From: an uncultured delta proteobacterium
GTDB taxonomy: Bacteria; Desulfobacterota; Desulfobacteria; Desulfobacterales; B30-G6
Reading direction: 5' to 3'
Assembly (NCBI GenBank): GCA_963823335.1
Contig: CAWGLD010000006.1
Span: forward strand, 157,595-221,594
DNA length: 64,000 nt
The notes under the pieces were generated by a model that worked only from the letters and a program-made list of their open reading frames with translations, had not been told where the DNA came from and did not search any database. Within the stretch, counting starts at the first letter, position 1. The number at the start of each line of letters is the position of its first letter. Made by a program: the position numbers and the translations under genes. This document shows positions 13,293-48,047 of this stretch, piece after piece.

Positions 13293-13403
13293 GGGGCTGA
13301 GGTTTGGAGGGTTGAAGGGTGACTGAAAGCTATCAGCGGTAAGCACCTGACAGCCTACAGTCTATTCCAATTTAAAACTCAAAATTAAAAATTAAAAATT
13401 GAA
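13285..13403. repeat. Composite intergenic repeats (family J octamers, family A motif, AAAATTA heptamers of family M)
   Basis: GGGTTTGA-GGGGCTGA-GGTTTGGA-GGGTTGAA, then AAAGCTATCAGC, then AAAACTCAAAATTAAAAATTAAAAATT; the first unit supplies the TGA stop at 13290-13292. Confidence 0.7.
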
Positions 13404-13408
13404 CTTTC

Positions 13409-14185: not shown

Positions 14186-14230
14186 AGTGAAGTTCAATTG
14201 AGAGAGTGCTTATGGTTAACCGTTTTTTAT

Positions 14231-14512
14231 TTTCGCCACAGACTCACACAGACAATCTTCGGCCGACATAGCCGAAGATCAATCTCAATGCCCTTCGGGC
14301 ATTAAATTTTTGCTTATTTTATCAAAAACCGCTTCGCAACTTATTTGAGTAAATCTAATTTATGTAAATTTTTTTTGAAAATAAGAGATCATACCTCGCG
14401 ATAGCCATAATTGGTTATCTTCGATCAAGTCGATCGAAGATAAAAATAAAATGTCTGTGATTGTCTGCGTACCCCTCAAGGGGGTATTAAACAGAATGTG
14501 TCTGCGGCTACA
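14231..14512. mobile_element. MITE-like structured element (family D), copy 1
   Basis: GCCACAGACTCACACAGAC...GTGTCTGCGGC termini; hairpins with loops CGACATA and CAAGTCG; internal TGCCC-ttc-GGGCA. Confidence 0.8.
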
Positions 14513-14536
14513 TAAAAAGGATCTACACCGTTCACG

Positions 14537-14622
14537 AAACACCAAATACAAAACACCAAACACTAGACCCAACGAACGCAACAAACCCAACAAACTCAAT
14601 GAACGCAACAAACCCAATAAAC
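14537..14622 (+). repeat. AAACACC heptamers followed by AACCCAAC(A/G)/AACTCAATG nonamers (family I)
   Basis: AAACACCAAATACAAAACACCAAACACT then ACCCAACGAACGCAACAAACCCAACAAACTCAATGAACGCAACAAACCCAATAAAC, running into the GNAT start. Confidence 0.8.
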
Positions 14623-15096
14623 ATAACTGGCTATACCCCCGGCGCCATCGGTCGTATAACCGAACTTCATGGCAGGTATTACAATCAATCGTGGGGGTTT
14701 GGACCGTTCTTCGAGGCCAAAGTGGCCACCGAGTTATCCGAATTCATCGGCCGATTCGATGACCAGAAGGATGGCTTCTGGACGGCCTGCCTCGACAACC
14801 GCGTTCAGGGTTCAATTGTCATTGATGCTAAAAACGCCGATTCAGAAGGAGTCCATTTACGATGGTATATCGTTTCAGAAAGTCTTCACGGTCAAGGCAT
14901 CGGTGGTCTTCTTCTATCAGTGGCCATGCACTTTTGCCGTGAGCGGCACTATAAACAGGTGTTTCTCTGGACATTCAAGGGTCTCGATCCTGCCAGACAT
15001 CTGTATGATAAAAATGGGTTCAAGTTGGTACATGAGCAACAAGGATCTCAGTGGGGCACAACCGTCAAAGAACAGAAATATATCTGTGAGCTCTGA
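14599..15096 (+). CDS. GNAT family N-acetyltransferase
   Basis: HLRWYIV..HGQGIG acetyl-CoA motif and LWTFKGLDPARHLY. Confidence 0.88.
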   Translation: MNATNPINITGYTPGAIGRITELHGRYYNQSWGFGPFFEAKVATELSEFIGRFDDQKDGFWTACLDNRVQGSIVIDAKNADSEGVHLRWYIVSESLHGQGIGGLLLSVAMHFCRERHYKQVFLWTFKGLDPARHLYDKNGFKLVHEQQGSQWGTTVKEQKYICEL

Positions 15097-15181
15097 GCCT
15101 GACGGATCATCGCCCAATTTTAATTTATTTGGCTTATAGCTCCGTATTAAAAACTCAAAACTAAAAATTAAGAATTAAAAA

Positions 15182-15796
15182 TTGATCTTCTTAAAAGGTT
15201 TCATCATCGGCATATCCATCGCGGCGCCCGTCGGTCCCATCGGTGTGCTCTGCATTCAACGAACCATCAGCCATGGCAAGTTGAGCGGTCTGGCAACGGG
15301 TCTCGGTGCTGCCAGTGCAGATGCCGTATACGGTTTTGTGGCTGCCTTCGGTTTGACATTTATTTCCAACTTTCTTGTTGCCCAGCAAACCTGGTTCCGT
15401 CTTATCGGCGGCGGATTCCTCATCTATTTGGGCGTGCGGGCCTATTTTTCAAACCTGGACAATAGAACAGTAAACACAAACAACCCGAGCCTTGCCGGCG
15501 CTTACGGCACCACGTTTCTGCTGACCCTTTCCAATCCCATGACCATCCTCTCATTTGCAGCAATTTTTTCCGGTTTCGGTCTCGTGGATGCATCAATTCA
15601 TTATGGTTCGGCAGCACTGATGGTTATCGGTGTCTTTTGGGGATCCGCCTCCTGGTGGCTTTTCCTCTCCAGCGGCACCAACCTTTTACGTGGGAGACTG
15701 AATCAGAGACTGGTATGGGTCAACAAGTTATCCGGGATTGTCATTGCCGTCTTTGGTGTTGTAGCGATTGGCAGTCTATTGATAACAAGATACTAG
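15182..15796 (+). CDS. LysE/RhtB family translocator
   Basis: AAPVGPIGVLCI, GAASAD and LTLSNPMTI; six hydrophobic segments. TTG start is uncertain because a family M repeat precedes it. Confidence 0.88.
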   Translation: MIFLKGFIIGISIAAPVGPIGVLCIQRTISHGKLSGLATGLGAASADAVYGFVAAFGLTFISNFLVAQQTWFRLIGGGFLIYLGVRAYFSNLDNRTVNTNNPSLAGAYGTTFLLTLSNPMTILSFAAIFSGFGLVDASIHYGSAALMVIGVFWGSASWWLFLSSGTNLLRGRLNQRLVWVNKLSGIVIAVFGVVAIGSLLITRY

Positions 15797-15824
15797 ATTT
15801 CGGCCATGTTTTGAAATAAAAGCA

Positions 15825-15904
15825 ATCACGAAAACACGAAAATTTAAAAACACGAAAATCTTCATGGTCTATTTCGTGGTTTCGTACTTTCGTGATTTCG
15901 TGAT
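15825..15904. repeat. Palindromic CACGAAA(A) octamer element (family L)
   Basis: ATCACGAAAACACGAAAA...CACGAAAA / TTTCGTGGTTTCGTACTTTCGTGATTTCGTGAT. Confidence 0.8.
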
Positions 15905-15950
15905 AAATGATCTTTTTCTTTTCTCGTTTATCCAAACTGGAAAGTAAAAA

Positions 15951-16649
15951 ATGCATTTTCAGAAATTTATGCAGGGGATCTTGCGGTTTTTTCGTGGCTG
16001 GGGATTTTCCATCGTTGCGGCTGTTCTGATTGCCACGTCTTTCAAATCCGCCATTGCCGATTGGAACGATGTCCCGACAGGTTCCATGAAACCGACCATA
16101 CTCGTGGGAGACAGGGTCTTTATCAACAAACTGTCGTACGGTCTCAAAATCCCATACACAACCTGGCATGTCACCCGTTGGGGATCCCCCGCGCATGGCG
16201 ATATCGTTGTCTTCTATTCTCCCGCAGACGGCAAACGTCTGATCAAGCGAGTGATCGGCCTACCCGGGGATGAAATAGCTCTGCGCAACAACAAACTGAC
16301 TATCAATGGGAAAGCACTCGATTACAAAATAATTGACAAAACATCCCCCGGTCCCACAAACACAATAACGGAAGATGACTACGTCTACCTGCTTGAGGAT
16401 CTTTTAGGTAAGCGTCATTCCATCATGATATCAGATACTGGAACTCCTTTCGATTCTTTTGATCCTGTTATAGTACCAGAAGGCAGGATTTTTTTAATGG
16501 GAGATAACCGGGATAATTCAGCCGATTCCCGGTTTTTTGGTTTTGTCGAATTAAACCAGGTGCTGGGACATGCAACTAACATTGTTCTCAGTCGTGATGG
16601 ATCGTTCCTGAATCCGAGATGGGAGCGGTTCTTCAAAAAGCTTTTATAG
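15951..16649 (+). CDS. lepB: Signal peptidase I
   Basis: VPTGSMKPT (catalytic Ser), LIKRVIGLPGD (catalytic Lys) and MGDNRDNSADSR. Confidence 0.95.
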   Translation: MHFQKFMQGILRFFRGWGFSIVAAVLIATSFKSAIADWNDVPTGSMKPTILVGDRVFINKLSYGLKIPYTTWHVTRWGSPAHGDIVVFYSPADGKRLIKRVIGLPGDEIALRNNKLTINGKALDYKIIDKTSPGPTNTITEDDYVYLLEDLLGKRHSIMISDTGTPFDSFDPVIVPEGRIFLMGDNRDNSADSRFFGFVELNQVLGHATNIVLSRDGSFLNPRWERFFKKLL

Positions 16650-16785
16650 TTTTCAACGCAGTGTTGATAGCGCACGATTGTAAGGCTGGAATGATGGTGG
16701 TGAGAGATTAAAATATGCATGGTGTCTGAGTTTAACGATATATAGATCTCCTATGAGTCTCTACGCTGAAATATAAGGAGTTAAC

Positions 16786-17451
16786 ATGGAATTACGAGAA
16801 GCCATCCTGAATCGACGCAGTGTCCGAAAATTTTTAAAGAAAGATGTTCCTGAGGAACTGATCAAGGAGGTTCTGATGGATTCCCAGTGGGCGCCGTCCT
16901 GGGGAAACACACAACCATGGGAGGTCATGGTCATCACAGGGGCCCCTCTGGAAGAATTCAAACAGAAAAACAAAGAGGCTCTCTTCAGCGGTATAAAGCC
17001 GAAGCCTGAAATTCAGATGCCGGAAGTTTTTCCTTCCCGTTTAAAACATCGCTATGTCGATGTAGGCAAGAGAGTTCTGAAATCTCTTTCCATCGACCGG
17101 GAAGATCTCGACGCTCGACTCAAGTATTATGGTGATATGTTTTATCTCTTCGATGCGCCTGTCTTGGTCCTGTTTCTACTGAGAAAGGATGTTTTGCTGG
17201 AATATGCAATGTTGGATGTTGGTTTATACCTTCAGACATTGCTGCTGTCAGCCCATGACAAGGCGCTCGGTGGTATCGTGTTGGCGGCATCGGTCAACTA
17301 TCCGGACATCCTCCGTTCCCTCTTCCCCATCGATGCAGAAAAAACCATTGTTATGGGAACCGCTCTCGGCTGGCCGGACCACAAGGCGCCGGTGAATTGT
17401 TTTGAACGACAACGGGCCAGCCTGGACGATACGGTTACCTGGATCAAATGA
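16786..17451 (+). CDS. Nitroreductase family protein
   Basis: RRSVRKF and WAPSWGNTQPW; AAGGAG RBS. Confidence 0.92.
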   Translation: MELREAILNRRSVRKFLKKDVPEELIKEVLMDSQWAPSWGNTQPWEVMVITGAPLEEFKQKNKEALFSGIKPKPEIQMPEVFPSRLKHRYVDVGKRVLKSLSIDREDLDARLKYYGDMFYLFDAPVLVLFLLRKDVLLEYAMLDVGLYLQTLLLSAHDKALGGIVLAASVNYPDILRSLFPIDAEKTIVMGTALGWPDHKAPVNCFERQRASLDDTVTWIK

Positions 17452-17677
17452 ATAGAATCCTTTGAAAATATTTCTAAAATCATCATTCTTGAAATTTGAA
17501 ACACTCACTTTAGATCTTGACAATTTCACCCTATCCTCTTAATGTTATTTTTAATTTAAACCCTGCCATATTCTATGAATGCTTTTTATTTCGGGCAAGC
17601 TACCATACGGTACTGCTTTGGGTCGTTTGCCTAATGTCAGAACGAATTGTTTTAATTTTTTAACCAAGGAGGGGATC

Positions 17678-18871
17678 ATGCTTTCAAGAAGTTTTATAGT
17701 GTTCGTCTTGGCGTCTTTTCTTCTTATGCCCTGCACTGTTTTTGCCAACGACCCTGGGATTACCGACGATGAAATCGTTCTCGGCGTGACACAACCGTTG
17801 ACGGGCCCGGCTGCCGGATGGGGTGTTGCCATTACCGGTGGTATGCAGGCATGGGCAGACCACATCAACAACCAGGGGGGTATCCATGGCCGCAAAATCA
17901 AACTCATCATTAAGGACGACGGCTACAACCCGGCCAGAGCGATGGCAAACCTGCAGGAAATGAAAGACAAAATATTTGCAGTCGTGGCCCAGCTGGGCTC
18001 CGCCCCCTGCAACGCCGCAAAAGACTTTTATCCTGAAAACAAGATACCCTTGATAACCGCTTACGGAAGCCTGGGTATATATCAACACCAGCCCAAGGAA
18101 GCCCAGAAATACTACTTTATCTCCTACCCGGATTACGGAGACGAAACCGAATTTATGGCCACGTATGCCATAAAGAATCTCGGGGCCAAAAAAATTGCCC
18201 ATTTCTACCAAAACGACGAATATGGCTTGGGAGCCAATGCCGGTATTAAAAAAGCACTGAAAGCCAACCCCGGTGCGGCGACACTGGTGGCGGAAATTCC
18301 CTATGAAGTCACCGAAAGAGCTTTGGGGACCCACGCGCTCAAACTGAAAGAATCCGGGGCAGATCTACTCATCATGACAACCATGATGTCGAGTGGCGCC
18401 ATTATGACCAAAGAACTCGCAAAAATTGCCTATCACCCCACAGTCATGGGAAACTTCCCCATTGGCATGCCCGTCATGTATAAAATTGCCGGCGAAACAT
18501 GGGAAGGCACCTACACCAATGCGTCTGCTCACATGGGTCTGCCGGGTTTTCATCCCCCTGCAGACAGAGTTGCCGATATCATCAACGAGATCAATCCAAA
18601 ACTCAAAGGGCAGGAAGTTCTCGCTCTGTTTGGCGCTGCCTCGATGATGCACTTTGCCGAAGGAGCTAAAAACGCCGGCCGAAACCTTACAAGGGAATCC
18701 TTGATCAAGGGAATGGAAATGATCAAAGACTGGAAACCGGAAGGAATGGGGGCACCGGTTACATACGGACCCGATCGGCATAACGGTGTCAATGCCATCT
18801 ACCTCCAGATTGCCAAAGACGGCCAACACGTGCCCGTTGGAGACTACGTTGTCTTTCCGCCAAAATTTTAA
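17678..18871 (+). CDS. Liv-type ABC transporter substrate-binding protein
   Basis: AAGGAGG RBS before ATG 17678; signal peptide; PLTGPAA, GGIHGRKI and DDGYNP. Confidence 0.9.
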   Translation: MLSRSFIVFVLASFLLMPCTVFANDPGITDDEIVLGVTQPLTGPAAGWGVAITGGMQAWADHINNQGGIHGRKIKLIIKDDGYNPARAMANLQEMKDKIFAVVAQLGSAPCNAAKDFYPENKIPLITAYGSLGIYQHQPKEAQKYYFISYPDYGDETEFMATYAIKNLGAKKIAHFYQNDEYGLGANAGIKKALKANPGAATLVAEIPYEVTERALGTHALKLKESGADLLIMTTMMSSGAIMTKELAKIAYHPTVMGNFPIGMPVMYKIAGETWEGTYTNASAHMGLPGFHPPADRVADIINEINPKLKGQEVLALFGAASMMHFAEGAKNAGRNLTRESLIKGMEMIKDWKPEGMGAPVTYGPDRHNGVNAIYLQIAKDGQHVPVGDYVVFPPKF

Positions 18872-18880
18872 TCTCGTACG

Positions 18881-18963
18881 GGTTAATTCCCCGCAGCTTG
18901 CTGCGATAAGATTGGTATAATCTATTTTTAGCTACCTCGTGGCTTGCCGCGAGGTAGTTCATT
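18881..18963. repeat. Paired GCAGCTTGCTGC-type hairpins (family K, resembling IS200/IS605 or REP ends)
   Basis: CCCCGCAGCTTGCTGCG...TACCTCGTGGCTTGCCGCGAGGTAGTTCATT; a related CCTCGTAGCTTGCTGCGAGG lies near 27440-27460. Confidence 0.6.
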
Positions 18964-19008
18964 CCTTGACTTTTCGGATCTTTGGAACCTGTTTGAAGTC
19001 ACTTCTAT

Positions 19009-19764
19009 ATGTCTTTACTGAACATACATAATCTCAGCATCAGTTTCGGCGGCATCCAGGCCTTGTCGAACATCGATATCTCAGTCGAACCCGAGCAGAT
19101 CATGGCCGTCATCGGCCCCAACGGTTCAGGAAAAACTACGCTTTTCAACTGCATCTCGGGGTCCTATCGCCCACAGGAAGGTACGATAAATTTCAATGGC
19201 GAAAGTCTCTTGGGGCTGTCTCCGGACAAGGTCGCACGAAGAGGTATCGCACGCACTTTCCAGAACCTGAGACTGTTCCTGCACATGACGGTCCTCGACA
19301 ACCTCCTCCTGGGAAGGCATGTCAAGTTCAAAAAGAACCCGTTTCATGCCGTTTTTAGAATCCGTCGGGAAGAGATGAAACACCGGCAGAAAGTCGAAGA
19401 ACTCATCGATTTTCTGCAACTCGAAGCCTACCGTGCAGTGAGAATTTCCGACTGTCCCTATGGGGTGCAAAAAAGAGCGGAAATCGGTCGTGCGCTTGCA
19501 ACGGAACCCCGGATGCTGATGCTGGACGAACCGATCTCCGGACTGACCGCAGAAGAAAAGCAGGAAACCGCATATTTGATCAATGAAATCCGGGGACGCT
19601 TCAAACCAACTATATTGCTGGTGGAACATGATTTGAGGCTGGCTTCGTCCCTGTCCGACCGAATGGTGGCGCTCGACACCGGTATTAAAATAGCCGAAGG
19701 TACCCCTGAAGAAGTCCAGCGAAATTCCGCGGTCATCAAGGCATATCTGGGAGATGACGACTGA
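19009..19764 (+). CDS. Liv-type ABC transporter ATP-binding protein (LivG-like)
   Basis: GPNGSGKT, ARTFQN, LDEP, VEHD and AYLG. Confidence 0.92.
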   Translation: MSLLNIHNLSISFGGIQALSNIDISVEPEQIMAVIGPNGSGKTTLFNCISGSYRPQEGTINFNGESLLGLSPDKVARRGIARTFQNLRLFLHMTVLDNLLLGRHVKFKKNPFHAVFRIRREEMKHRQKVEELIDFLQLEAYRAVRISDCPYGVQKRAEIGRALATEPRMLMLDEPISGLTAEEKQETAYLINEIRGRFKPTILLVEHDLRLASSLSDRMVALDTGIKIAEGTPEEVQRNSAVIKAYLGDDD

Positions 19765-19771
19765 GAAAGAG

Positions 19772-20010
19772 CAATTTTGAATTATGAATTTTGATTATGA
19801 ATTAGATAGCTGATGACTGATAGCTCATAGGTTATAGGCAAGCGCTAGCATGCTGGATGCATTGTCAAAAACTCATCGTCGATCAAGTCGATCGATGATT
19901 GTCAGTGTGTGTCTGTGGCTAAATAAAAAAGATTTACACCTTTAGCGAAACACCAAACACTAAACACAAAATACCAAACACAAATTACACAATGAACCCA
20001 ACAAACACAC
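19772..20010. repeat. Composite intergenic repeats: family M, family A, right half of family D (19874-19922), AAACACC heptamers, family I start
   Basis: AATTTTGAATTATGAATTTTG; GATAGCTGATGACTGATAGCTCATAG; CATCGTCGAT-CAAGTCG-ATCGATG..GTGTGTGTCTGTGGCTAAATAAAAAAGAT; the right part mirrors the order seen at 14417-14622. Confidence 0.75.
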
Positions 20011-20780
20011 CGCTACTGCGCATCGCCAACATCGAAACACTCTATTTCGACAGGATCTATGCGCTGCATGGGCTTTCTCTCGAGATTCAGGAGGGCGAAA
20101 TATTTGCGGTGCTGGGCCCGAATGGTGCCGGCAAAACCACCCTTCTTAAAACCATTGCCGGCCTCCTGAAAGACCAGCCCAAAAAAGGTGTCATCGAATT
20201 CATGGGCAAACGCATTCACCGCCACCCGCCTGAACGTGTGGCCAATCTCGGCATCGTATATGTTCCCGAAGATCGCGGACTTTTCAGGGAATTGACCGTA
20301 CGGGAAAACTTGGATATCGGATGCTGGGGCAGAAAAGGAAAGGAAGTTCAGGAAGACTTGGAGTTTGTCTACACGCTGTTTCCCATATTAAAGGAGAGAG
20401 GCAAGCAGCAGGCAGAAACCCTGTCAGGTGGTCAACAGCAGATGCTGGCAGTTGCAAGGGCCATGCTCCGCCGACCCAAGCTTCTCATGCTGGACGAGCC
20501 ATCCCTGGGACTGGCTCCGCTGGTAGCAAAAGATGTTTATGGAGCACTCGTCAAGATCAGCGAAACCGGGACGACCATTCTCCTTGTAGAACAGAATGCA
20601 AAACTGGCGCTTGGAATTGCCGACTATGGTTATATCATGGAATCCGGACGCATTGTCCTCGAGGGCACTTCCCAGGATCTCAAGGAAAATGAAGATGTTC
20701 AGGAACTCTATTTGGGCATTGGCCAGGAAGATGCCGCATCTAAAGGATTCAGATTGTACAAGAAAAGGAGAACCTGGTAA
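19992..20780 (+). CDS. Liv-type ABC transporter ATP-binding protein (LivF-like)
   Basis: GPNGAGKT, LSGGQQQM, LDEPSLGLAP and VEQN. Confidence 0.92.
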   Translation: MNPTNTPLLRIANIETLYFDRIYALHGLSLEIQEGEIFAVLGPNGAGKTTLLKTIAGLLKDQPKKGVIEFMGKRIHRHPPERVANLGIVYVPEDRGLFRELTVRENLDIGCWGRKGKEVQEDLEFVYTLFPILKERGKQQAETLSGGQQQMLAVARAMLRRPKLLMLDEPSLGLAPLVAKDVYGALVKISETGTTILLVEQNAKLALGIADYGYIMESGRIVLEGTSQDLKENEDVQELYLGIGQEDAASKGFRLYKKRRTW

Positions 20781-22573
20781 TGACCTTTCAGGCTGACCAT
20801 TTTCCAGATCTCTTCTTTCATCAGACCAAGCGCCTGGGGGATAAAGTGGCACTTCGCCACAAAGATTACGGCATCTGGAATCGAATTTCCTGGAAAGAAT
20901 ATGGGAAAAATGTTCGTACGGCTGCCGCCGGATTCCTGGCCGCTGGTATCGACCTGGGCGACCGCATTGCCATTTTGGGCGACAACCGACCGGAATGGCT
21001 CATCTGTCACCTGGGTGCCATGACGGCCGGAGGTGTTACCTGCGGCATCTACCCCACCTCTTCTCCCGAAGAAATTGAATATGTCGTAGAACATTCCGAG
21101 TCCAAAATACTGTTTGTGGAAAATGAAGAGCAGATTGACAAAATACTTCAAATTATCGACCGTCTCAATGTCTCAAAAGTCATCATCTGGGACAAACAGG
21201 GACTCTGGGGGTTCTCACATCCACGGGTGGTTTTTTACGAGGAATTTATGGCCGGCGGCCAAGCATACCTCGATGCCCATCCAATGGGAATTGAAGATAG
21301 ATTGGCTGCCATCCAGCGGGACGATGTTGCCATGATGATCTACACGTCAGGCACCACTGGAAGACCCAAAGGCGCCATGATATCGCATGAGAATATTCTC
21401 TCTTTGACCGAGTCGCTCGTGAGCGTGATCGGAGAAAAAGAAAACGACGAACTTCTCTCATACCTCCCTTTGGCGCATATTTATGAAAACCTGATATCGG
21501 TATTTCAGGCAGTCTGGACCGGGGCCACTGTCAGTTTTGTCGAAAGTATCGATACCCTGTCCATCAACCTGAGAGAGATCTCTCCCACCATCTTCGCAAG
21601 TGTTCCCAGACTGTGGGAAAAATTCGTATCCATGGTCGAAATCAAAATATCGGATTCCACCATCGTGAAAAGGGCATTTTACCGTCTGGCTATCAACGTC
21701 GGCCTGCAACGGATTCGGACACCGGAAGACTCCCCCCGACGAAAGTGGCTGAATATTGCCTACTTGCCCTTGTACTGGACTGTATTGTACCACCTCAAAC
21801 GACAAATCGGACTGGAAAGAATCCGATATTCCATCTGTGGTGCGGCACCAGCCAGCCCTGAGCTGTTTGAGTGGTTTAACGCCATCGGTGTCCCCCTGAG
21901 GGAAGGCTACGGACAAACAGAATCGACAGGTGTTATTGCCATTCAGCGCCTGGATCGCTCACGATCCGGTTATGTGGGTGAAGCCTTGCCCGGGGTTGAG
22001 ATAAAAATTGCCGAAGACGGTGAAATTCTTTCCAGGGGAAAAGGTGTCTTCAAGGGCTATTACAAGCAGCCGGAGCTGACTGCCGAAACCATTCAAAACG
22101 GGTGGCTTCATACGGGAGATGTGGGCAAACTCGAGGACGGTTTTCTTAAAATTCTGGACAGAAAAAAAGATATCATCATCACCCGGGGCGGTAAAAACAT
22201 TACCCCGGCTTTCATCGAAAACAAACTGAAATTCAGTTTTTACATCCAGGACGCCGTTGTCATCGGCGACAACCGCAAATACCTGACGGCCCTTATCCTC
22301 ATCGACGAGGACACTGTCAACAAATATGCCCAGGATCATGCCATACCCTTTACGACGTTTGCCGATCTGACCAAAAATGAGGAAATCAATAAATTGATCG
22401 ACAAAGAGATTGACACTGTCAACAAGACGCTTGCCCGGGTGGAAACCATAAAAAAATTCAAACTTCTGCCCAGACGTTTCTATGCCGAAGACGGGGATGT
22501 CACCCCCACCCAGAAGGTCAAGCGACGGGCATTGGAAAAGACCTATGGAGAACTGATCGAATCAATGTACTAA
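20780..22573 (+). CDS. Long-chain acyl-CoA synthetase embedded in the ABC operon
   Basis: YTSGTTGRPKG, YLPLAH, GYGQTE, HTGD and TPTQKVKR; TAATG overlap with the upstream gene. Confidence 0.92.
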   Translation: MTFQADHFPDLFFHQTKRLGDKVALRHKDYGIWNRISWKEYGKNVRTAAAGFLAAGIDLGDRIAILGDNRPEWLICHLGAMTAGGVTCGIYPTSSPEEIEYVVEHSESKILFVENEEQIDKILQIIDRLNVSKVIIWDKQGLWGFSHPRVVFYEEFMAGGQAYLDAHPMGIEDRLAAIQRDDVAMMIYTSGTTGRPKGAMISHENILSLTESLVSVIGEKENDELLSYLPLAHIYENLISVFQAVWTGATVSFVESIDTLSINLREISPTIFASVPRLWEKFVSMVEIKISDSTIVKRAFYRLAINVGLQRIRTPEDSPRRKWLNIAYLPLYWTVLYHLKRQIGLERIRYSICGAAPASPELFEWFNAIGVPLREGYGQTESTGVIAIQRLDRSRSGYVGEALPGVEIKIAEDGEILSRGKGVFKGYYKQPELTAETIQNGWLHTGDVGKLEDGFLKILDRKKDIIITRGGKNITPAFIENKLKFSFYIQDAVVIGDNRKYLTALILIDEDTVNKYAQDHAIPFTTFADLTKNEEINKLIDKEIDTVNKTLARVETIKKFKLLPRRFYAEDGDVTPTQKVKRRALEKTYGELIESMY

Positions 22574-22711
22574 AGGCTTTTTGTAGATCGGTATCTCCCG
22601 ATCGGTGTTAAAAAAAGGCACTCTCTGTGACCTCTGTGTCTCTGTGGTGGAAAAAAAGAACCCTTTACCGATGCATTCTTAAACCTAAAGCCATTTAATT
22701 AGGATACTACG

Positions 22712-23692
22712 TTGGACTTAGTTGAAAGTTACGCCGAAGAACTGAAGCTCATCCGCAAAACCGGCACCAAAGCCTGGGTGTTTGCAGTGGTAATTGCCAT
22801 ATTTCTTTTGCCCCTCTATGCGCCCGAACACTTGGTATATGTGACCACGATCATCGCCATCTATGCCATCGGCATCATGGGGCAAAATCTCTTGATCGGG
22901 TACACCGGTCAGATCTCTTTTGCCCAGGCCGGGTTTTTCTGTATCGGGGCTTTTGCCTTCGGGCACTTGTATCGTGCCGGCATCCCATGGCCTGTGAGCG
23001 TTCTTGGGGCAGGTCTCATCACCGGACTGGTGGGTATACCCGTCGGGATTCCTTCCTTGCGGCTGAAGGGCCCTTACCTCGCCATCGCCACCATGGGCTT
23101 CGGGATTGCCGTCTACCAGGTCTTTGTCAATTCTCCCCTCCTCTCAGGCGGCCGCATGGGACTCATGATAACCAAGCTTGAACCCATGTTCGGCCTCTCC
23201 AGGGTCAATACCTATTTCTACATCAATCTGATCATCGCGGTTCTTTTCACCCTGATTGCCTACAACATCGTTTCTTCCTACATGGGCCGCGCATTCATCG
23301 CAATCCGTGACAATGACATTGCCGCCGAAGTCCTCGGTGTAAACCTGTTACAGTACAAACTGTTGTCCTTTGCCATCAGTTCCTTTTACGTGGGGGTCCA
23401 GGGCGGTCTCTACGCCCTCTTTCTGGGCTACCTGGAACCGAACATGTTCACCTTCATGGAAACCATCACCTTCCTTGTAGCAGTCATTGTAGGGGGATTG
23501 GCATCCGTGGAAGGCGCCATCATGGGGGCGGCTTTTGTGATACTCGTTCCCCATTTTTTCAGTGATCTGAAAGAATTTATACCGGTCATCTATGGTGTGG
23601 TCATTATCGTCATCCTCATCTTCGAGCCGGGCGGTATCGCCGGCCGCTGGATGAAGATAAGGCTCTATTTCCGTAACTGGCCATTCAGATAG
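22712..23692 (+). CDS. Liv-type ABC permease (LivM-like)
   Basis: GYTGQISF, LRLKGPYLAIAT and GRAFIAIRDN. Confidence 0.9.
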   Translation: MDLVESYAEELKLIRKTGTKAWVFAVVIAIFLLPLYAPEHLVYVTTIIAIYAIGIMGQNLLIGYTGQISFAQAGFFCIGAFAFGHLYRAGIPWPVSVLGAGLITGLVGIPVGIPSLRLKGPYLAIATMGFGIAVYQVFVNSPLLSGGRMGLMITKLEPMFGLSRVNTYFYINLIIAVLFTLIAYNIVSSYMGRAFIAIRDNDIAAEVLGVNLLQYKLLSFAISSFYVGVQGGLYALFLGYLEPNMFTFMETITFLVAVIVGGLASVEGAIMGAAFVILVPHFFSDLKEFIPVIYGVVIIVILIFEPGGIAGRWMKIRLYFRNWPFR

Positions 23693-23825
23693 TTAGATGA
23701 GTTTATTGGGTTCGTTGAGTTCGTTGGGTTGGTTGACAGTTATCGGGCTCCCTAATTTCCTGTCCGCCTGTTTACAGTTAACAACTCAATGAACACAATA
23801 AACACAACAAGCTCAAGAAACAAAG
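23693..23825. repeat. Empty family I element (inverted nonamer arrays)
   Basis: TGAGTTTATTGGGTTCGTTGAGTTCGTTGGGTTGG...AACTCAATGAACACAATAAACACAACAAGCTCAAG; same arrays as flank gene 26261-26650, but no ORF between them. Confidence 0.82.
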
Positions 23826-23834
23826 AAGGTTAAT

Positions 23835-24719
23835 ATGGAACGTATTCTTCAGTATACCGTATCAGGTCTCAGCCAGGGAAGTCTCTACGCCCTGGTAGCC
23901 TTGGGCGTCGTCCTCATCTACCGTTCGAACAGGGTGCTCAACTTTGCTCACGGAGACGTCACGACAGCCGGTACCTTCATCGCACTTTCTTTCATGCTGA
24001 TGAATTTTAACTGGTGGCTGGCCGCCTCCCTGTCCCTAATTATGGGAGCCGTGATATCCATTCTGTTCTATTTTGTTATCCTCCTACCTGCACAACGACG
24101 TGAAGCCACCCCGCTGGGGCAGGTGATCTTGACCCTGGGCTTTGGCCTCATTCTCCAGGGATTGATACTCAAATTCTGTAACACCGCCGAACCCCAGAAC
24201 TTCCCCTTCCCGCTTTCGGACACCAAGGTGTTCATGTTCGGAAATATCATCGTCAGTCATCTCAGCCTTGGGACTCTCGTGGTGGGAATTGTGGGCAGTC
24301 TTCTTTTCTATCTTCTCATCCAAAAAACCCGCATCGGTCTGGCCATGCGAGCCACATCGGAAAACCTGCAGGCAGCCCAGACGCTTGGCATCCCTACCCG
24401 TGGCATCCTGGCCCTTTCCTGGGGGATGGCAGCGTTTATCGGTGTACTGGCGGGACTTTTTTTGGCTGCCCAACTTCTCATCGACCCTTTTTTCATGCTG
24501 GAACCCTTTTTAAAAGGATTTGCTGCTGCCATTCTGGGCGGACTCAACAGTCTGCCCGGTGCCATTGTCGGCGGTTTGACATTAGGTGTGGTCGAAGCAT
24601 TATTTGGCGGGTTCATCTCTGTCGCCTTTAAAAACACCCTGGCATTTCTGATCATCATCATTGTGCTCGTTTTCAGGCCCGAGGGGCTGTTGGGTAAAGA
24701 GTTCATCGAACGTATATAA
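23835..24719 (+). CDS. Liv-type ABC permease (LivH-like)
   Basis: YALVALG, LNFAHG, GLAMRA, FAAAILGG and RPEGL. Confidence 0.92.
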   Translation: MERILQYTVSGLSQGSLYALVALGVVLIYRSNRVLNFAHGDVTTAGTFIALSFMLMNFNWWLAASLSLIMGAVISILFYFVILLPAQRREATPLGQVILTLGFGLILQGLILKFCNTAEPQNFPFPLSDTKVFMFGNIIVSHLSLGTLVVGIVGSLLFYLLIQKTRIGLAMRATSENLQAAQTLGIPTRGILALSWGMAAFIGVLAGLFLAAQLLIDPFFMLEPFLKGFAAAILGGLNSLPGAIVGGLTLGVVEALFGGFISVAFKNTLAFLIIIIVLVFRPEGLLGKEFIERI

Positions 24720-24721
24720 GA

Positions 24722-24763
24722 ATAAATTCGTATTGCGAATTTATCATACGCGACGCTGTCGCT
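24722..24763 (+). repeat. Family C element, copy 3
   Basis: ATAAATTCG-tattg-CGAATTTAT cata CGCGAC-gct-GTCGCT, just after the livH-like stop codon. Confidence 0.82.
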
Positions 24764-24907
24764 CTACGCTTCGCTTGATTTGGGATAAAAACGTTTCTTA
24801 CGTTTAAACCATGATCAGCGATTAATTACGCGCGCAGCGCAAATGTCGCCCGTAGGGCTAATGACATACCGGCAGAGCCACAACTCTTTTTTTATGGAGA
24901 TAATCGT

Positions 24908-26182
24908 ATGACTGACGATCTGCTCAAGAAGGCCAAAAAATATCGCTGGTACATTTTCTGGATCCTCGCTCTTGGATATGTTCTGGTATACTTCCATCGA
25001 CTCTGCCCGGCGGTCGTTGCGGTGGAAATGATGAAGGACCTCAATGCCACCGGCGCTTTGACCGGATTTCTGGGCGCCGCCTATTTCTACCCGTATGCAG
25101 CCATGCAGTTGCCGGCCGGACTCCTGTCGGACTCCTGGGGACCCCGGAACACCATTACCCTCTTTTTCATCATCGCCTTTTTCGGATCCGTCATTCTCGG
25201 TCTGGCACCCTCTGTTTCTATCGCAATCGTGGGACGGACTTTGGTGGGGCTTGGCGTTGCCATGCTTTTTGTGCCCACCATGAAGATCCTGGCAGAGTGG
25301 TTTCATATCAAAGAATTCGCCACCATGACCGGTATTCTCATGGCACTGGGCGGTGTGGGCTCTCTGATAGCCGCAACACCACTGGTTTGGGTCAGCAGCT
25401 GGATAGGTTGGCGACAGTCATTCATTCTGGTGGGTGTCATCACTGTGGTTCTGGCAATTCTCGTGTACTTGATTGTTCGGGATCGACCCGCAATAATGGG
25501 CTGGCCTTCCCCGGCCGGGACACCCCAGGCACCACCAAAACCCATTGCCCTCATGGCGGGTGTCAAGAAAGTGCTCACTACCCCATTTTTCTGGCCCGTG
25601 GCGATTTGGTTTTTCTTTGACTGTGCTATTTTTTTCTCATTCGGTGGTCTTTGGGGCGGCCCTTATCTCATGCAGGTCTATGGCTACAGCAAAGCCCAGT
25701 CCGGACATATTCTCTCCATGCTGGCCATCGGCATGATCGTCGGCAGTCCTCTGCTGAGCTATTTTTCGAACACAGTGCTCAGATCCAGAAAAATTGCCGT
25801 TATGATTTCGAGTGTGATGGTTCTCTGTCTGGTTTTCCCGCTTGCTTTTTTTACGGCAGAAATTCCCCTCATGGGGCATTACATCATCTGTCTGGGGCTG
25901 GGAATGTTTTCCAGCGCCATCGTGGTTATCGGTTTCACCACCAACAAGGAACTCTTTCCGGTTCAAATGGCCGGAACTGCCACCGGCATGATCAATCTGT
26001 TCCCTTTTTCAGGTGGTGCTGTGTTTCAACCGGTTCTGGGTTATGTGTTGGAAAAACAAGGCCGCATAGAGGGCGCATTTACTCTGGGTGGCTATCAGCA
26101 GGCGTTTCTGGTTCTGTTTGCCTGCAGTGTCATTGCCTTGATCGCCAGTTTTTTCTTCAAGGAAACACTTCAAAAAGGCTGA
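24908..26182 (+). CDS. MFS transporter
   Basis: About 12 hydrophobic segments; GLLSDSWGPR motif A; GRTLVGLG. Confidence 0.92.
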   Translation: MTDDLLKKAKKYRWYIFWILALGYVLVYFHRLCPAVVAVEMMKDLNATGALTGFLGAAYFYPYAAMQLPAGLLSDSWGPRNTITLFFIIAFFGSVILGLAPSVSIAIVGRTLVGLGVAMLFVPTMKILAEWFHIKEFATMTGILMALGGVGSLIAATPLVWVSSWIGWRQSFILVGVITVVLAILVYLIVRDRPAIMGWPSPAGTPQAPPKPIALMAGVKKVLTTPFFWPVAIWFFFDCAIFFSFGGLWGGPYLMQVYGYSKAQSGHILSMLAIGMIVGSPLLSYFSNTVLRSRKIAVMISSVMVLCLVFPLAFFTAEIPLMGHYIICLGLGMFSSAIVVIGFTTNKELFPVQMAGTATGMINLFPFSGGAVFQPVLGYVLEKQGRIEGAFTLGGYQQAFLVLFACSVIALIASFFFKETLQKG

Positions 26183-26190
26183 AAGCCTTT

Positions 26191-26730
26191 TTGGGTTATT
26201 GAGTTTGTTGGGTTTATTGAGTTCGTTGGGTTCGTTGCGTTTATTATTTGGGTGCAGTAAATGCCGATTAGAAGGTTTGAAGATATTGATGCATGGAAAG
26301 AGGCCAGAAAACTTGTTATTTTGGTCTATCAGGCGATTGATTCCAATGATTTTTTCAGAAAAGATTACAGACTTGTCAATCAAATTCAAGGTGCGGCAGT
26401 TTCTGCAATGTCAAATATTGCAGAGGGTTTTTCAAGAAGAAGCAACAAAGAATTCATCCAGTTTCTTTTTATTTCGAAAAGTTCAGCTGCAGAGGTTCAA
26501 AGTCAACTATACGTCGCCCTCGACCAGAAATATATCGACAATGAAACATTTAATAAACTTTATTCACAAGCCGAAACAGTTTCAAGACTTACTTCCGGCT
26601 TCATCAAATACCTAAGATCTCAACTCAACAAACCAAGGCAACCAGGTTAACTCAATGGCACTCCCATATGCCCCAGAGCATTCAACAACTCGACGAACTC
26701 AATAAACCCAACGAACCCAACGAACACGAC
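26191..26730. mobile_element. Family I element carrying a four-helix-bundle gene
   Basis: Upstream TTGGGTTATTGAGTTTGTTGGGTTTATTGAGTTCGTTGGGTTCGTTGCG and downstream AACTCAAC...AACTCGACGAACTCAATAAACCCAACGAACCCAACG form inverted arrays around the gene. Confidence 0.75.
26261..26650 (+). CDS. Four helix bundle protein (TIGR02436 / 23S-IVP / Avd-like family)
   Basis: FEDIDAWKEA, QIQGAAVSAMSNIAEGF, EFIQFLFISKSSAAEVQSQL. Confidence 0.93.
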   Translation: MPIRRFEDIDAWKEARKLVILVYQAIDSNDFFRKDYRLVNQIQGAAVSAMSNIAEGFSRRSNKEFIQFLFISKSSAAEVQSQLYVALDQKYIDNETFNKLYSQAETVSRLTSGFIKYLRSQLNKPRQPG

Positions 26731-26804
26731 AATCCTCTCTTGAAAATCATTCAAAACAGTTTATAGTTAGAATATCATTATCCAATTTAATTTGGGGGTA
26801 TCGT

Positions 26805-27254
26805 ATGAAACTCAAACAAATCACCATTTCAATTGAAAATGAGCCCGGTCGACTACTGGAAGTAACGGAGGCCCTGGGCAATGCCGGGATCAACCTCCGG
26901 GCACTCAATCTGGTGGACACCGGCGCCTTTGGTCAGCTGCGATTGCTTGTCTCCGATGTCAGAAAAACCCGTCACATCCTGATGGGTTTGCAAGCGGCAG
27001 CTCATGTCGAAGAAGTCGTTGCAGCAGAAATCGAAGACAAATCCGGCAGTTTGGCGGCCATCTTAAAACCACTCAAGGCTGCAAACATCAATGTTGTTTT
27101 CATGTACGCCTTTATTGGCTTGTCATCCGACAAGGCCGTCATGATCTTCAAATTCAGCGACAACGACAGGGCAATAGAACTCCTTCAAAGCATTCATGTC
27201 CGTATACTGGATGCCAAAGCCTTTGGCATCCTGGAGTCGGGGAACAACCATTAG
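26805..27254 (+). CDS. ACT domain-containing protein (two ACT repeats)
   Basis: QITISIENEPGRL..GINLRAL and EIEDKSGSL..INVVFMYAF. Confidence 0.88.
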   Translation: MKLKQITISIENEPGRLLEVTEALGNAGINLRALNLVDTGAFGQLRLLVSDVRKTRHILMGLQAAAHVEEVVAAEIEDKSGSLAAILKPLKAANINVVFMYAFIGLSSDKAVMIFKFSDNDRAIELLQSIHVRILDAKAFGILESGNNH

Positions 27255-27351
27255 GCTGTTAGGCTGTAGACTATGAGGGTTTGAGGGTAGCGTTCATTAA
27301 TCAGATCGCTTTTTCGTAAAGCGCTAAATTGTTTTGACGTTGAGAAACGAG

Positions 27352-27666
27352 TGAACATCGAACGTCCAACATCGAACATCGAATTTTGAACCGCAACAGC
27401 GTGCGCATTCCCGTAGGTTCTGCCGCACGGCAGAACATTCCTCGTAGCTTGCTGCGAGGTTCTTCAATTTAAAAAGAAGAAGAAACAGGCAAATCGTTGA
27501 AGGGCTTCCAAATATCAGAGCAAGTAAACATGTTGTGGCCAATTGTTAAGATTGAAAGCGTTGCCATACCCAAGGCATCAAACAAATTGAAAAGAAACAG
27601 ATATAATTCGATATTGATATTTGTTTTCATTCGATGTTGGACGTTGGACGTTCGATGTTCGACGTT
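27352..27666. repeat. Family B element, copy 2 (contains a family K hairpin)
   Basis: Left GAACATCGAACGTCCAACATCGAACATCGAA; right TTCGATGTTGGACGTTGGACGTTCGATGTTCGACGTT. Confidence 0.85.
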
Positions 27667-27696
27667 ATTCTTTTAAATAGTAACTCGGTAAATAAA

Positions 27697-30021
27697 ATGA
27701 ACAAACAACCATCTAGTGACTCCCACGGCCTGGAGGATGCCGGAAGCTTAGAAGCCTGTGACATACCTCAGGACCGCTATCGTGTTTTCATTCAGGACGT
27801 TGCCGATGCATTTTTTGAAACAAACATTCAGGGAGATTTTATATTCTTCAACGACGCGCTGTGCCGTATATTCGGATATTCCAGAGAGGAGATCGAACAT
27901 CAGAATTTCAGGCTTTTTATGGACGGTGCCACTGCTGAATATGCCTTTGACAGCTTCAACAAGATGTTCGAAACGGGAAAAGGTGTCAACAACATCCTAT
28001 GGGAAATATCCAGAAAAGATGGTGGAACCCGAATACTCGAAATAAATGCCAACCTCTTAGAAGATACAAACGGTGTCAAGGTAGGATTTCAGGGTATCGC
28101 CAGGGATGTTACCGACAAGATCAAAGCCGAGCAGGCATTGAAAGCATCGGACAAGCAAATCCAGGAGCAGTATCTGGCCAGCCGCATGGCAGAGCAGCGC
28201 TATCGCTCATTTATGGAATTCATGCCGGTTCCGGTGTTTGTCTTCAATATGGATGGCACCGTCTCTTATCTTAACCCGGCATTTGAAAAAACATTTGGAT
28301 GGACACTGGGCGAGCTCGAGGGCCGACATATCTCTTTTGTACCGGAGGATCAGAAGGCAAAAACCCGTCAGGGTATTCAGCAGCTCTTTGAAAAGAAAAG
28401 AATAACGGGCTTCAAAACCCAGCGTCTTACCAAGGACGGAAAAATTCTCGATATTGTTTTGGATGGCGCTATTTTTTATGACGAGAACAACCAGCCCGCC
28501 GGTCAGGTAGTCACACTCCAGGACGTCACACAGGAAAACCGCGGCGCCCGCATCAACCAGGCCCTCTTCAGGATCGCCCAGGCACTCTATCAATTCAGGG
28601 GACTGGACGAACGGCTGGAATTTATTGCCAAGGAAGTCAAGGAGCTCATCGACGGCAGCGGCGCCATGGTCATTCTGGTGGATCATAAAACAAACGAATT
28701 CTTTTTTCGCGAAGCCGCTTTTGAAAGCGAAATCACCGGCCAGAAAATAAAAGAACTTCGCTTTCCCCTGGACAAGGGTGTCGCCGGAGAAGTCTATCGT
28801 ACCGGCAAACCCATGATCGTCAACGACACCTCTAAAAACCCTCATATCTTCAGAAAAGTAGATGACCAGGCCGGGATGCAGACCCACAGCATGCTGGATG
28901 TCCCCATCCATATCGAAAACCGGATGATCGGGGTTTTGTGCATTGTCAACAAGCGCAGCGGCCCCTTTGACCAGGCAGACACCGACCTGGTGAGTACCAT
29001 CGCCAACATGGTGGCACTTCCCATCGAAAATGCCCGTATCAACGAAGCCCTCCGAAAGTCCTATGAAAATGTCACAAACCTGAACAGGGCCAAAGACCGG
29101 GTGATTCACCATCTGTCCCACGAACTCAAAACACCCGTGTCTGTTTTATCAGCCTCATTGAATCTTTTAAAGAAACGATATCAGGGGCCCGACGCAGCAG
29201 GTCTTTCGAAAATCCTGGATCGTGCCGAACGGAATCTCGATCGGATCCTGGACATGCAGTATGAAATCGAAGATATCATGGATCGACGTGACTATCGGAG
29301 TCATCGTATGCTCTCTTCCCTGCTGGATGTCTGTCAAGACGAACTCGAGGTCATGGTTGCCGATGAAACTGGTTCGGAACGATTTACAGATCGTTTGCGG
29401 CATCGTATCGACAGCCTTTTTGGTCCACGCAATATCATATCTGAGGAAATCAAACCCGCTTCTCTTTTATCGAATCTTTTTGAATCGTTGCGCCCTCGTT
29501 TCGCACATCGTTCTTTTGACATCGAAACACGCTTTGATCCTACCGAAGCGATATTGATTCCCCCGGAAGTCCTGACTAAAATTGCGGAAGGGCTTATTCG
29601 TAATGCCATTGAAAACACACCGGATGGCGGGCGCATTGTCATATCGTTGACCCAGGGATCCAAGGGGCCTGAGTTGGTTGTCCAGGATTTTGGCGTGGGG
29701 ATATCGGAAGAGAACCAGCGCTTGATTTTCGAAAACTATTTCACGGCATATGAGACAGCCCAATACGCATCACGCAAACAATATGACTTCAACGCCGGCG
29801 GCAAGGGGTTCGATCTTATTCGGATACGAATATTTTCCGAAAGATACCACTTTAAATTGAAGATGACATCCAAACGATGCCCTCATCTTACAAACGATAA
29901 GGATTCAGGCCCCGGCAGCATCGCTGCTTGTGAGCATTGCAGAAAAGATGCAGATTGTTTATCATCCGGAACCACCATGACAGTACTGTTTTTACCGGCT
30001 AAGACGGTAGCGGTTCAATGA
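27697..30021 (+). CDS. Cytoplasmic PAS-PAS-GAF sensor histidine kinase
   Basis: Two PAS domains, a GAF domain (KGVAGEV, MLDVPI), H-box HHLSHELKTP, RNAIENT and DFGVGI. Start set at ATG 27697 because the upstream extension translates a family B repeat. Confidence 0.9.
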   Translation: MNKQPSSDSHGLEDAGSLEACDIPQDRYRVFIQDVADAFFETNIQGDFIFFNDALCRIFGYSREEIEHQNFRLFMDGATAEYAFDSFNKMFETGKGVNNILWEISRKDGGTRILEINANLLEDTNGVKVGFQGIARDVTDKIKAEQALKASDKQIQEQYLASRMAEQRYRSFMEFMPVPVFVFNMDGTVSYLNPAFEKTFGWTLGELEGRHISFVPEDQKAKTRQGIQQLFEKKRITGFKTQRLTKDGKILDIVLDGAIFYDENNQPAGQVVTLQDVTQENRGARINQALFRIAQALYQFRGLDERLEFIAKEVKELIDGSGAMVILVDHKTNEFFFREAAFESEITGQKIKELRFPLDKGVAGEVYRTGKPMIVNDTSKNPHIFRKVDDQAGMQTHSMLDVPIHIENRMIGVLCIVNKRSGPFDQADTDLVSTIANMVALPIENARINEALRKSYENVTNLNRAKDRVIHHLSHELKTPVSVLSASLNLLKKRYQGPDAAGLSKILDRAERNLDRILDMQYEIEDIMDRRDYRSHRMLSSLLDVCQDELEVMVADETGSERFTDRLRHRIDSLFGPRNIISEEIKPASLLSNLFESLRPRFAHRSFDIETRFDPTEAILIPPEVLTKIAEGLIRNAIENTPDGGRIVISLTQGSKGPELVVQDFGVGISEENQRLIFENYFTAYETAQYASRKQYDFNAGGKGFDLIRIRIFSERYHFKLKMTSKRCPHLTNDKDSGPGSIAACEHCRKDADCLSSGTTMTVLFLPAKTVAVQ

Positions 30022-36731: not shown

Positions 36732-38463
36732 ATGATATTCAAGCATTCGAACCATTTAAAAACCAAGTCTCATCCTCACAGTTCTCGGCCTGGCGCTCCT
36801 GTTTCCCGTGTTGTCTGAAGCCCAAACACAGGCGTCTTTTACATGGGATCCAAACATCGAGCCGGATATCGCAGGCTATCGCGTTTTTCATCGTGTTGCA
36901 GGAAACGCATACAATTACAGCAAACCCGCCTGGGAAGGATCTAAGACCTCATGCACCATCGATATAGCGACTGACGACATGCGCCATTATTTTGTTGCGC
37001 GCGCAGTTGACACCCGAGGCTTTCAAAGCCAGAACTCAGATGAGGTCTGTCTCGGGTGCTCCACTGATTCAGCCGATAACTGTCCAAACGATCCAAATAA
37101 AACCGAGCCAGGCGTATGTGGTTGCGGCACTCCGGATATCGACACGGACAGGGATGGAACTCTGGACTGCAATGACGGATGTCCGAATGACCCTGACAAG
37201 ACCAGACCAGGCGTAAACGGATGCGGCTTCCCGGAGCCCGTCAGTGATGGTGGAACCCCTGCAGACCCTGACAACTGTCCAACGGATCCCCAAAAAACCG
37301 AACCAGGTATATGCGGATGCGACATTCCGGACATCGACACGGACAGGGATGGAACTCTGGACTGCAATGACAGATGTCCGAATGACCCTGACAAGACCAG
37401 ACCAGGCGTAAACGGATGCGGCTTCCCGGAGCCCGTCAGTGATGGTGGAACCCCTGCAGACCCTGACAGCTGTCCAACCGATCCCAAAAAAACCGAGCCA
37501 GGTATATGCGGATGCGGCATTCCGGACATCGACACGGACAGGGATGGAACTCTGGACTGCAATGACAGCTGCCCGGATGACCCTGACAAGGTCAGGCCGG
37601 GTGTAGGCGGGTGCGGCTTCCCGGAGCCCGTCAGTGATGGAAGCCCCGCAGACCCTGACAACTGTCCAAACGATCCAAATAAAACCGATCCAGGCATATG
37701 CGGATGCGGCATTCCCGACATCGACACGGACCTGGACGGTAGACTCGACTGTAATGACAGATGCCCGGATGACCCCGACAAGGTCAAGCCGGGTACTTGC
37801 GGATGCGGTACAGCTGACACTGATGTGGATGAAGACGATGTGTTGGACTGTTATGATACGGATGATGACAACGACGGCATCAGTGATGCTGTTGAAGCAA
37901 AGGGCCCCAACCAGGGCGACGCCAACCGGGATGGCATCCTTGACAGTCTGCAATGCAACGTCGGCAGTATAAAAATGAGTGACAAAAAGAACTACATCAG
38001 CCTGGAAAGCCCGGAAGGCACCTGCATCAGTGATCTTATGCGAGCGGACAATCTGCCCTTTGTGGAATTTCCTCAAGATGTAGATTTTATCTATGGGCTG
38101 TACGAGTTCGTTGTTCAGGATACCGGTTATGGCAAAAATGTCATCGCAACGATCACCCTGCCCCAGGGCGCTTTCCCCGATACCTTTTACATTTATGGTC
38201 CAACACCTGAAAACCCCACCAACCACTGGCATGAATTCCTGGACAATGGTCAAACAGGGGCGGAAATCGAAGGAAACAGCATTACACTTTTCCTTACCGA
38301 TGGCCAAAGAGGAGATACTGTCCTCACCAAAGACAGAATGGTTGTCATTCTTGGTGGTCCAGGGTATATATCGACCGGTACGGAAAGGGATTACAGCCCC
38401 GACACTGATTCCAGCAGCAGCAGTGGGGGTAGTGCTTGCTTTGTAGACTGTTTGCCCAAATAA
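36732..38463 (+). CDS. Secreted Ca-binding repeat protein (FN3-like N-terminus, TSP3-like repeats, choice-of-anchor-U-like domain, CF(I/V) tail); apparent +1 frameshift in the signal peptide
   Basis: ORF 36808-38463. Removing one A from the A5 run at 36758-36762 joins ATG 36732 to give MIFKHSNHLKPSLILTVLGLALLFPVLSEA, a signal peptide. DxCPxDP and DxDxDG repeats; LTDGQRGD. Confidence 0.75.
37075..37810 (+). repeat. Intragenic tandem repeat of about 195 bp, about 3.8 copies
   Basis: Units start at 37075, 37270, 37465 and 37657 and encode DNCPxDPxKTEPGxCGCxxPDIDTDRDGTLDCNDxCPxDPDK..CG. Confidence 0.9.
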
Positions 38464-48018: not shown

Positions 48019-48047
48019 TCTTCATTCCTTACTGCAAATAAAAGATG

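Follow-up and report, generated by a model that had tools for sequence, protein, structure and literature searches.

A four-helix-bundle gene enclosed by inverted nonamer arrays as a small cassette with a lineage-specific repeat word

Background

Why does a small gene in a bacterial genome sit between two arrays of the same nine-base word, one the inverse of the other? The arrangement occurs in a 64,000-nt stretch of DNA from an uncultured delta proteobacterium (hereafter the window), where a gene for a four-helix-bundle protein is found with its arrays between an MFS gene and an ACT gene. An initial annotation of the sequence described it and offered two readings: the arrays could pair and loop the gene out of an mRNA, in the manner of an rRNA intervening sequence (IVS), or they could be the ends of a mobile cassette bound by the protein. 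We evaluated both, together with the possibilities that the arrays spread on their own, that the protein is a regulator, and that gene and arrays are neighbours by chance.

Short degenerate intergenic arrays of 7-nt units, such as the cyanobacterial STRR, lie at gene boundaries and have an unexplained origin. Among comparable arrays, often near starts, are the TAACTGA repeats of Beggiatoaceae (PMC4679880) and the GGGAATC repeats of Xanthomonas, which include inverted pairs (PMC4692102). For the former, a regulatory role was proposed and a mobile binding protein suggested (MacGregor 2015, PMC4679880), and that paper asks for the origin and binding partner of such arrays. Neither paper connects a protein family with its arrays, four-helix or helix-bundle terms having no match in either text, and a term search of PMC4679880 found no mention of IVS proteins.

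The protein family has its own literature. ORF-bearing 23S rRNA IVSs of Coxiella, and also Leptospira, encode members of the same family, occur sporadically, and have an inverted-repeat stem of similar length; the 28-bp stem of the Coxiella burnetii S23p IVS is cut by RNase III, tandem heptamers precede the S23p ORF, excision is cleavage without religation, and relatives of the protein are pentamers (PMC4990558). The same fold is found in Avd of diversity-generating retroelements (DGRs), an RNA-binding pentamer that touches an RNA stem-loop with all five of its protomers and assists the reverse transcriptase (10.1101/2023.10.23.563531). The locus ties together two orphans, the widespread but function-less TIGR02436 family and the short degenerate intergenic arrays. 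Our full-text literature search, which covered few subscription papers, found no link of the PF05635 family to tandem arrays outside rRNA.

Results

The inverted nonamer arrays annotated around 26261-26650 were borne out, with five units on each side (Table 1). The accompanying statement that the last codons already belong to an array held in part: they overlap a degenerate run, but this run is separate from the main right arm, lying 29 nt from it and out of register. The hairpin on the MFS side was not scored as a terminator, and two relatives (G001 and G008) have hairpins with other stems at the equivalent place. On the ACT side, the sigma-70-like site is only a match to the consensus, with 3 such sites found where 1.8 are expected, and similar hexamers occur in cassette-free relatives. 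The cassette lies between protein genes, outside any rRNA gene; Rfam gave no match in 13000-28000, and no tRNA was found in the 64,000-nt window. By eye, against cassette-free MFS-ACT junctions, no target-site duplication or outer terminal repeat was visible.

Table 1. Positions of the cassette, its parts, and related arrays in the window
Feature	Position	Strand	Basis
Solo C/A arm, 6 units; contains predicted GNAT ATG 14599	14566..14619	+	
Short solo C/A arm, 3 weak units; contains predicted livF-like ATG 19992	19986..20012	+	
Gene-free inverted nonamer pair, livM-livH junction	23698..23822; arms 23698-23736 and 23783-23822	.	
11-bp hairpin over MFS stop codon, directly 5' of left arm (host side)	26170..26194	+	
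Left arm, G/T-rich nonamer array YRTTGNGTT	26191..26241 by TRF; five clean units 26197-26241	+	
Four-helix-bundle gene, 129 aa, PF05635/TIGR02436, 9-mer clade	26261..26650	+	ORF and profile matches
Inner degenerate run, four 9-nt units (2 exact), over last codons and stop	26622..26657	+	read from sequence
Right arm, array of five C/A-rich AACNCAAYR nonamers	26687..26731	+	
Sigma-70-like site of ACT gene, 10/12 consensus matches, 8 nt past right arm (host side)	26740..26767	+	

The family assigned initially was confirmed above curated cut-offs by PF05635, the only Pfam match of the 129-aa protein (E 6e-32, 110.4 bits vs cut-off 33.8), and by TIGR02436 (E 2e-31, 108.4 bits vs cut-off 24). The protein is all-helical, and its structure model has four long helices (pLDDT 95.4). 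Foldseek matched it to Xcc0516 (2gsc; TMq 0.83, rmsd 1.3), BT_0352 (TMq 0.74), and Avd (4dwl; TMq 0.71, 11% identity), so the relatedness to Avd claimed at the outset holds at the level of fold. The Avd profile NF033474 did not match it and gave a 7-mer paralogue 28.9 against a cut-off of 80. The 2GSC and 2RLD structures contain five chains each, and an Avd-like homopentamer is predicted. Relative to its homologs, the protein is conserved with saturated synonymous sites (pS 0.69–0.89, pN 0.15–0.18), and dN/dS is about 0.03–0.11 wherever dS is finite; the gene is under purifying selection. Such saturation beside a conserved protein implies that the non-coding word has been kept or regenerated. 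In-frame stops were observed in at least three genes of the 9-mer clade. Array read-through tails were considered as selected peptides and dropped, given that tail length and frame vary among relatives.

Across the 4.37-Mb genome to which the window belongs (G000), one detector found inverted arrays framing 11 of 15 full-length four-helix genes, near-copies included, against 19 of 3854 other predicted genes from crude calls made for this analysis. These rates, 73% and 0.5%, differ about 150-fold. Once near-copies were merged, 7 of 10 four-helix gene types were framed, and three of the 19 framed "other" genes proved to be truncated four-helix genes. Among the unframed types, one has a single arm and one is a tandem pair with none. 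Some array was found on at least one side of 850 of the 3854 predicted genes (~22%). Each framed type has its own word of 6, 7, 8, or 9 bases.

The window itself contains a second four-helix gene (47662-48018, minus strand) between inverted 7-mer arrays (47601-48153), and its 7-mer word is also present in long arrays at 45236, 49318, 50615, 52771, and 55027. Elsewhere in G000 (C4:64077-64895), two divergent four-helix genes form a tandem pair around which no arrays were detected; G001, G002, G004, G005, and G011 have similar pairs.

We surveyed 81 homolog loci, comprising the best 80 of 564 (from 17 of 64 collection parts) and the window. Judging by the labels of the nearest homologs and by habitat records, the host of the window is probably a sediment bacterium of Desulfobacterales type. 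The arrays were inverted at 37 loci, direct at 9, and otherwise arranged at 10, with one arm or none at 25, while 0 of 429 control windows had inverted arrays. The initial annotation had staked its case on an association of four-helix genes with inverted arrays beyond chance, which both comparisons support, and had suggested surveying whether protein clade and repeat unit go together. They do: in a quick tree built from 84 proteins, one 37-row branch of moderate support (SH-aLRT 86) takes in 32 of 33 period-9 rows, the other five rows of the branch having detector labels of 8, 10, or none. The word label changes 6 times on the tree, compared with 26.3 times when shuffled (0/500 shuffles as low), with the qualification that kin share labels and that the loci are mostly MAG contigs. 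The branch spans at least seven phylum labels, taken from MAG records. For 36 of its 37 rows (L115 left out), the arm layout is 18 inverted, 6 right only, 5 direct, 3 left only, and 4 undetected. In L018, L021, L025, L030, and L033, both flanks have a related nonamer in direct orientation, and no hairpin can therefore form there.

The word reads AACNCAAYR. Across the 149 units of 38 genomic arrays, fixity is 95–100% at positions 1-3 and 5-7 while 4, 8, and 9 vary, a result partly imposed by the search pattern, which was derived from the window's own arrays. The 38 arrays (at least three units, mostly 3–5) are spread over G000; on contigs C4 and C5, 10 real arrays compare with 0 and 0 in two order-3 Markov simulations. 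All are gene-free except two, the arms of the cassette (36/38). Neighbouring units are identical in 4 of 111 steps, where random draws expect 5%; being no more alike than random draws, they are unlike the products of fresh slippage. The G/T strand of the word has no fixed A. DGR-type adenine mutagenesis was rejected as the source of the free positions because other words have, by eye, fixed A on both strands.

The arms have a polarity. It is the outer end that lies closer to a gene boundary in 31 of the 38 arrays, and in 18 this end is within 25 nt of one; by the crude gene calls, 24 face a start. The half-arrays noted initially near 14565-14622 and 19992 were both recovered (Table 1), and since predicted GNAT and livF-like starts fall inside them, the arrays appear to code for the N-termini of host proteins. 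The gene-free inverted pair between the livM-like and livH-like genes is likewise present. Its description as an empty twin did not hold in the plain sense of a gene deletion: its 53-nt loop matches nothing else in G000, and a closer relative (G005) has no arrays there; the pair may stem from a loss or from an independent insertion. Four other gene-free pairs (C4:293157, C1:524447, C1:1980524, C9:62999) share one 47-nt loop at 78–89% identity, which indicates that units bounded by arms but empty of a gene have multiplied too. One joint between 26223 and 26696 among the DNA contigs of four runs was discarded; it has a 25-nt side and unknown letters between, and probably stems from a gene-free pair elsewhere.

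Occupancy of orthologous junctions is patchy, with a cassette-like gain and loss in line with the mobile cassette suggested initially. None of 10 relatives having both MFS and ACT carries the gene at this junction, which in one of them contains an N gap and in another the left arm only. In G008 the stop-codon hairpin and the promoter-like hexamer are just 4 nt apart; in the window, the whole cassette lies between them. Congener G009 has a gene-bearing cassette at livM-livH, where its register relative to the livM stop is that of the window's empty pair, and another between nadE and GNAT, whose right arm is the window's solo arm at the GNAT start. It has none at MFS-ACT, and across these junctions gene and arms come and go as a unit. 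The two G009 copies are 83% identical in DNA to each other and 69–71% to the window's gene, which points to duplication or conversion within the G009 lineage. G005, closer to G000, lacks nonamer arrays at both livM-livH and MFS-ACT but retains the solo arm at the GNAT start and the one at the livF-like start; the latter is kept in G000, G005, and G009. The MFS-ACT junction is an insertion hot spot. Different nested array-bounded inserts were seen there in the close relatives L082, L083, L084, and L101, all upstream of the conserved promoter-like site.

Arrays were found in 10 of 10 genomes of the genus, and this clade's gene, with this query, in only 3 of 10. Pattern matches number 113, 94, 67, 45, and 51 in G001, G002, G004, G005, and G011, where the clade gene was not found, and 37, 37, and 15 in the three gene-bearing genomes; the array-rich genomes without it hold other PF05635 genes. 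Two order-level genomes with the gene, G105 and G126, had 0 matches to the strict three-unit pattern. Neighbours within the clade are unrelated (carA-carB, pdhA-pdhB, nuoC-nuoD, glmU-glmS, T2SS L-M, and others). The strand is that of the four-helix gene for 30 of 31 Pfam-positive ORFs on the upstream side and for 23 of 25 ORFs on the downstream side. The 66 neighbour ORFs, each the longest within 700 nt and not always the nearest, included one transposase, one integrase, and no reverse transcriptase.

If the locus were an IVS-like mRNA element, the arms would pair, RNase III would cut the stem, and the RNA of the gene would be removed, with the word mattering only as stem. Such a helix can form: 26687-26716 are predicted to pair with 26203-26232 over 30 uninterrupted bp (27 Watson-Crick and 3 G-U), with 0 of 20 shuffles as stable (z -4.7), and the gene-free livM-livH pair also folds stably (z -3.6; 0/200 shuffles). 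In the window's helix, each of the three non-Watson-Crick pairs is a G-U in the sense-strand RNA; many copies are located within operons, and the Coxiella rRNA element, with its cut stem and tandem heptamers (PMC4990558), is the closest precedent. An excess of G-U over A-C pairs was observed in 21 loci with 7/8-mer arms (42 vs 20, p 0.007), nine of the G-U pairs coming from one locus and the cross-pair G-U share being 53%, and selection for a stem may hold in these other clades. The 9-mer arms, in contrast, show no such excess (45 vs 51, p 0.61; 24 inverted loci picked by eye) and no unit-order signal (13.5 observed vs 12.5, 189/500 shuffles as high, in a low-power test of 19 loci). In the 24 loci, an arm's own partner outscored foreign arms only slightly (24.5 vs 20.8, p 0.009), a difference that sub-family words and array length may explain. 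By a length-uncorrected score, 14 of 23 foreign right arms fit the window's left arm no worse than its own right arm does.

Direct arrays in 5 of 36 clade loci and right arms alone in 6 of 36 also speak against this reading, as does the word itself, since a stem requires no fixed word conserved across phyla; for the 9-mer arms, the word seems to be more important than any stem. The promoter-like site directly after the right arm is a further argument against loop-out, weak on its own. Excision of the IVS kind, cleavage without religation (PMC4990558), would split the host mRNA rather than splice it. Contigs from four metatranscriptomes, which cannot show RNA ends or absence and so count neither for nor against, contained no cassette-skipping joint; 26464-26624 was uncovered in all four, and the gene was matched by one contig of 151 nt, at 13 differences. 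Metatranscriptome joints between 23727 and 26196 were repeat artefacts. The loop-out proposal retains its helix, the 9-mer arms show no in-register co-variation, and we consider an IVS-like element unlikely here.

Discussion

We propose that the locus is a small cassette made of a four-helix gene and lineage-specific 9-base arrays, and that its protein likely recognises its own word. That it is a cassette we hold with high confidence; for the whole chain, recognition included, we see the case as evenly balanced. The proposal builds on the gene-array association, the branch-word tie, the patchy occupancy, the co-orientation with host genes, and the selection on the gene, all shown above. Its spread at unrelated gene junctions would likely be due to an Avd-like pentamer recognising its own word. 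The gene would be expressed from the host transcript, and the oligomer would read the fixed AAC.CAA positions of 3–6 tandem units, probably in RNA, with the free positions tolerated. A putative enzyme supplied in trans would then copy or insert the unit at gene boundaries. The gene would often be lost or broken later, leaving far more gene-free arms, some of which would supply host start codons. The long hairpin would be a by-product of the inverted arms that may make insertions tolerable, rather than a core function. Parts of this chain can be read otherwise: linked inheritance alone can produce a clade-word tie, patchy occupancy can reflect repeated loss, and the arrays may be what remains after a gene was lost, or may spread without it.

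The position of the arrays suggests instead a regulator with its own sites, binding beside start and stop codons, those of its own gene among them, to tune translation or mRNA stability, with movement incidental. The 18 of 38 arrays with an outer end at most 25 nt from a gene boundary, the 24 that face a start, and the arm at the livF-like start kept in three genomes all speak for it, and this is the role proposed for the TAACTGA repeats (MacGregor 2015, PMC4679880). We regard it as rather improbable as the main account, however, as the clade gene was found in 3 of 10 genus genomes against arrays in all 10, array sites differ between close relatives, and at least three clade genes have in-frame stops.

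Autonomous or host-driven repeats of the MITE kind, with the gene as passive cargo between arms, would account for the 36 gene-free arrays of G000, the four pairs with a common loop at different sites, and the plentiful arrays in genomes where the gene was not found; other four-helix cassettes of G000 also lie inside a terminal-repeat element with 8-bp duplications. Arbitrary cargo would be expected of such a system, yet four-helix genes are framed about 150-fold more often than others, and each four-helix lineage has a different word, so we judge this quite improbable. Chance co-location in a repeat-rich genome, which the ~22% of genes beside an array and the different repeat families at the MFS-ACT junction of relatives might have suggested, is refuted by the 81-locus survey, by the genome-wide framing rates, and by a word that follows its protein clade across phyla.

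Several known systems resemble such a cassette. REP/REPIN repeats with their RAYT, and MITEs, also combine a gene flanked by cognate repeats with many gene-free copies and pairs sharing a spacer. The cassette protein differs from RAYT in having no transposase or nuclease fold (not Y1/HUH), and its units are tandem words, not palindromes; unlike a MITE or non-autonomous IS, the cassette has no outer terminal inverted repeats or target duplication that we could see. It differs from Avd in sequence (11% identity, no NF033474 match) and in having no reverse transcriptase among the 66 cassette neighbours. The two reverse-transcriptase genes of G000 (C1:97337, C7:233479) lie on other contigs, not near any of the 38 nonamer arrays. 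The unit is 9 nt rather than the 7 nt of TAACTGA and GGGAATC arrays, and a protein family is linked to it here. Compared with the ORF-bearing 23S rRNA IVS, the cassette has long stem-forming ends (30 bp, z -4.7) but lies between protein genes rather than in rRNA; its arms are degenerate 9-mer arrays with no demonstrable co-variation, and its clade includes direct-orientation forms. We found no description of this arrangement around an ordinary-looking family member, which amounts to a variant of the ORF-bearing IVS design outside the IVS location.

More generally, and only tentatively, each S23p/Avd-like lineage might read its own word of 6–9 bases, with minimal mobile cassettes borrowing an enzyme in trans and seeding heptamer-to-nonamer arrays, and with ORF-bearing rRNA IVSs as the copies that landed in rRNA. 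Avd, as the partner of a reverse transcriptase, is the model for such borrowing. If this were true, the rRNA IVS would be a special case of a general element, and if the protein does recognise the word, a class of short bacterial repeats that has been puzzling would become easier to explain. The locus names a specific candidate protein-word pair, for which paralogues in the same genome are built-in specificity controls.

Two other repeats were observed along the way. G000 contains a non-autonomous element with ~22-bp GG...CC terminal repeats (56 ends when up to 4 mismatches are allowed; C7:353943-354259, C1:412354-412912, and about 50 further ends). Of the 6 pairs inspected, 2 have 8-bp AT-rich duplications. 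The element harbours four-helix cassettes whose arms are 8-mers or 6-mers, many of them internally deleted. Finally, the window has a 195-bp tandem repeat of 3.6 copies at 37078-37782, which is probably coding.
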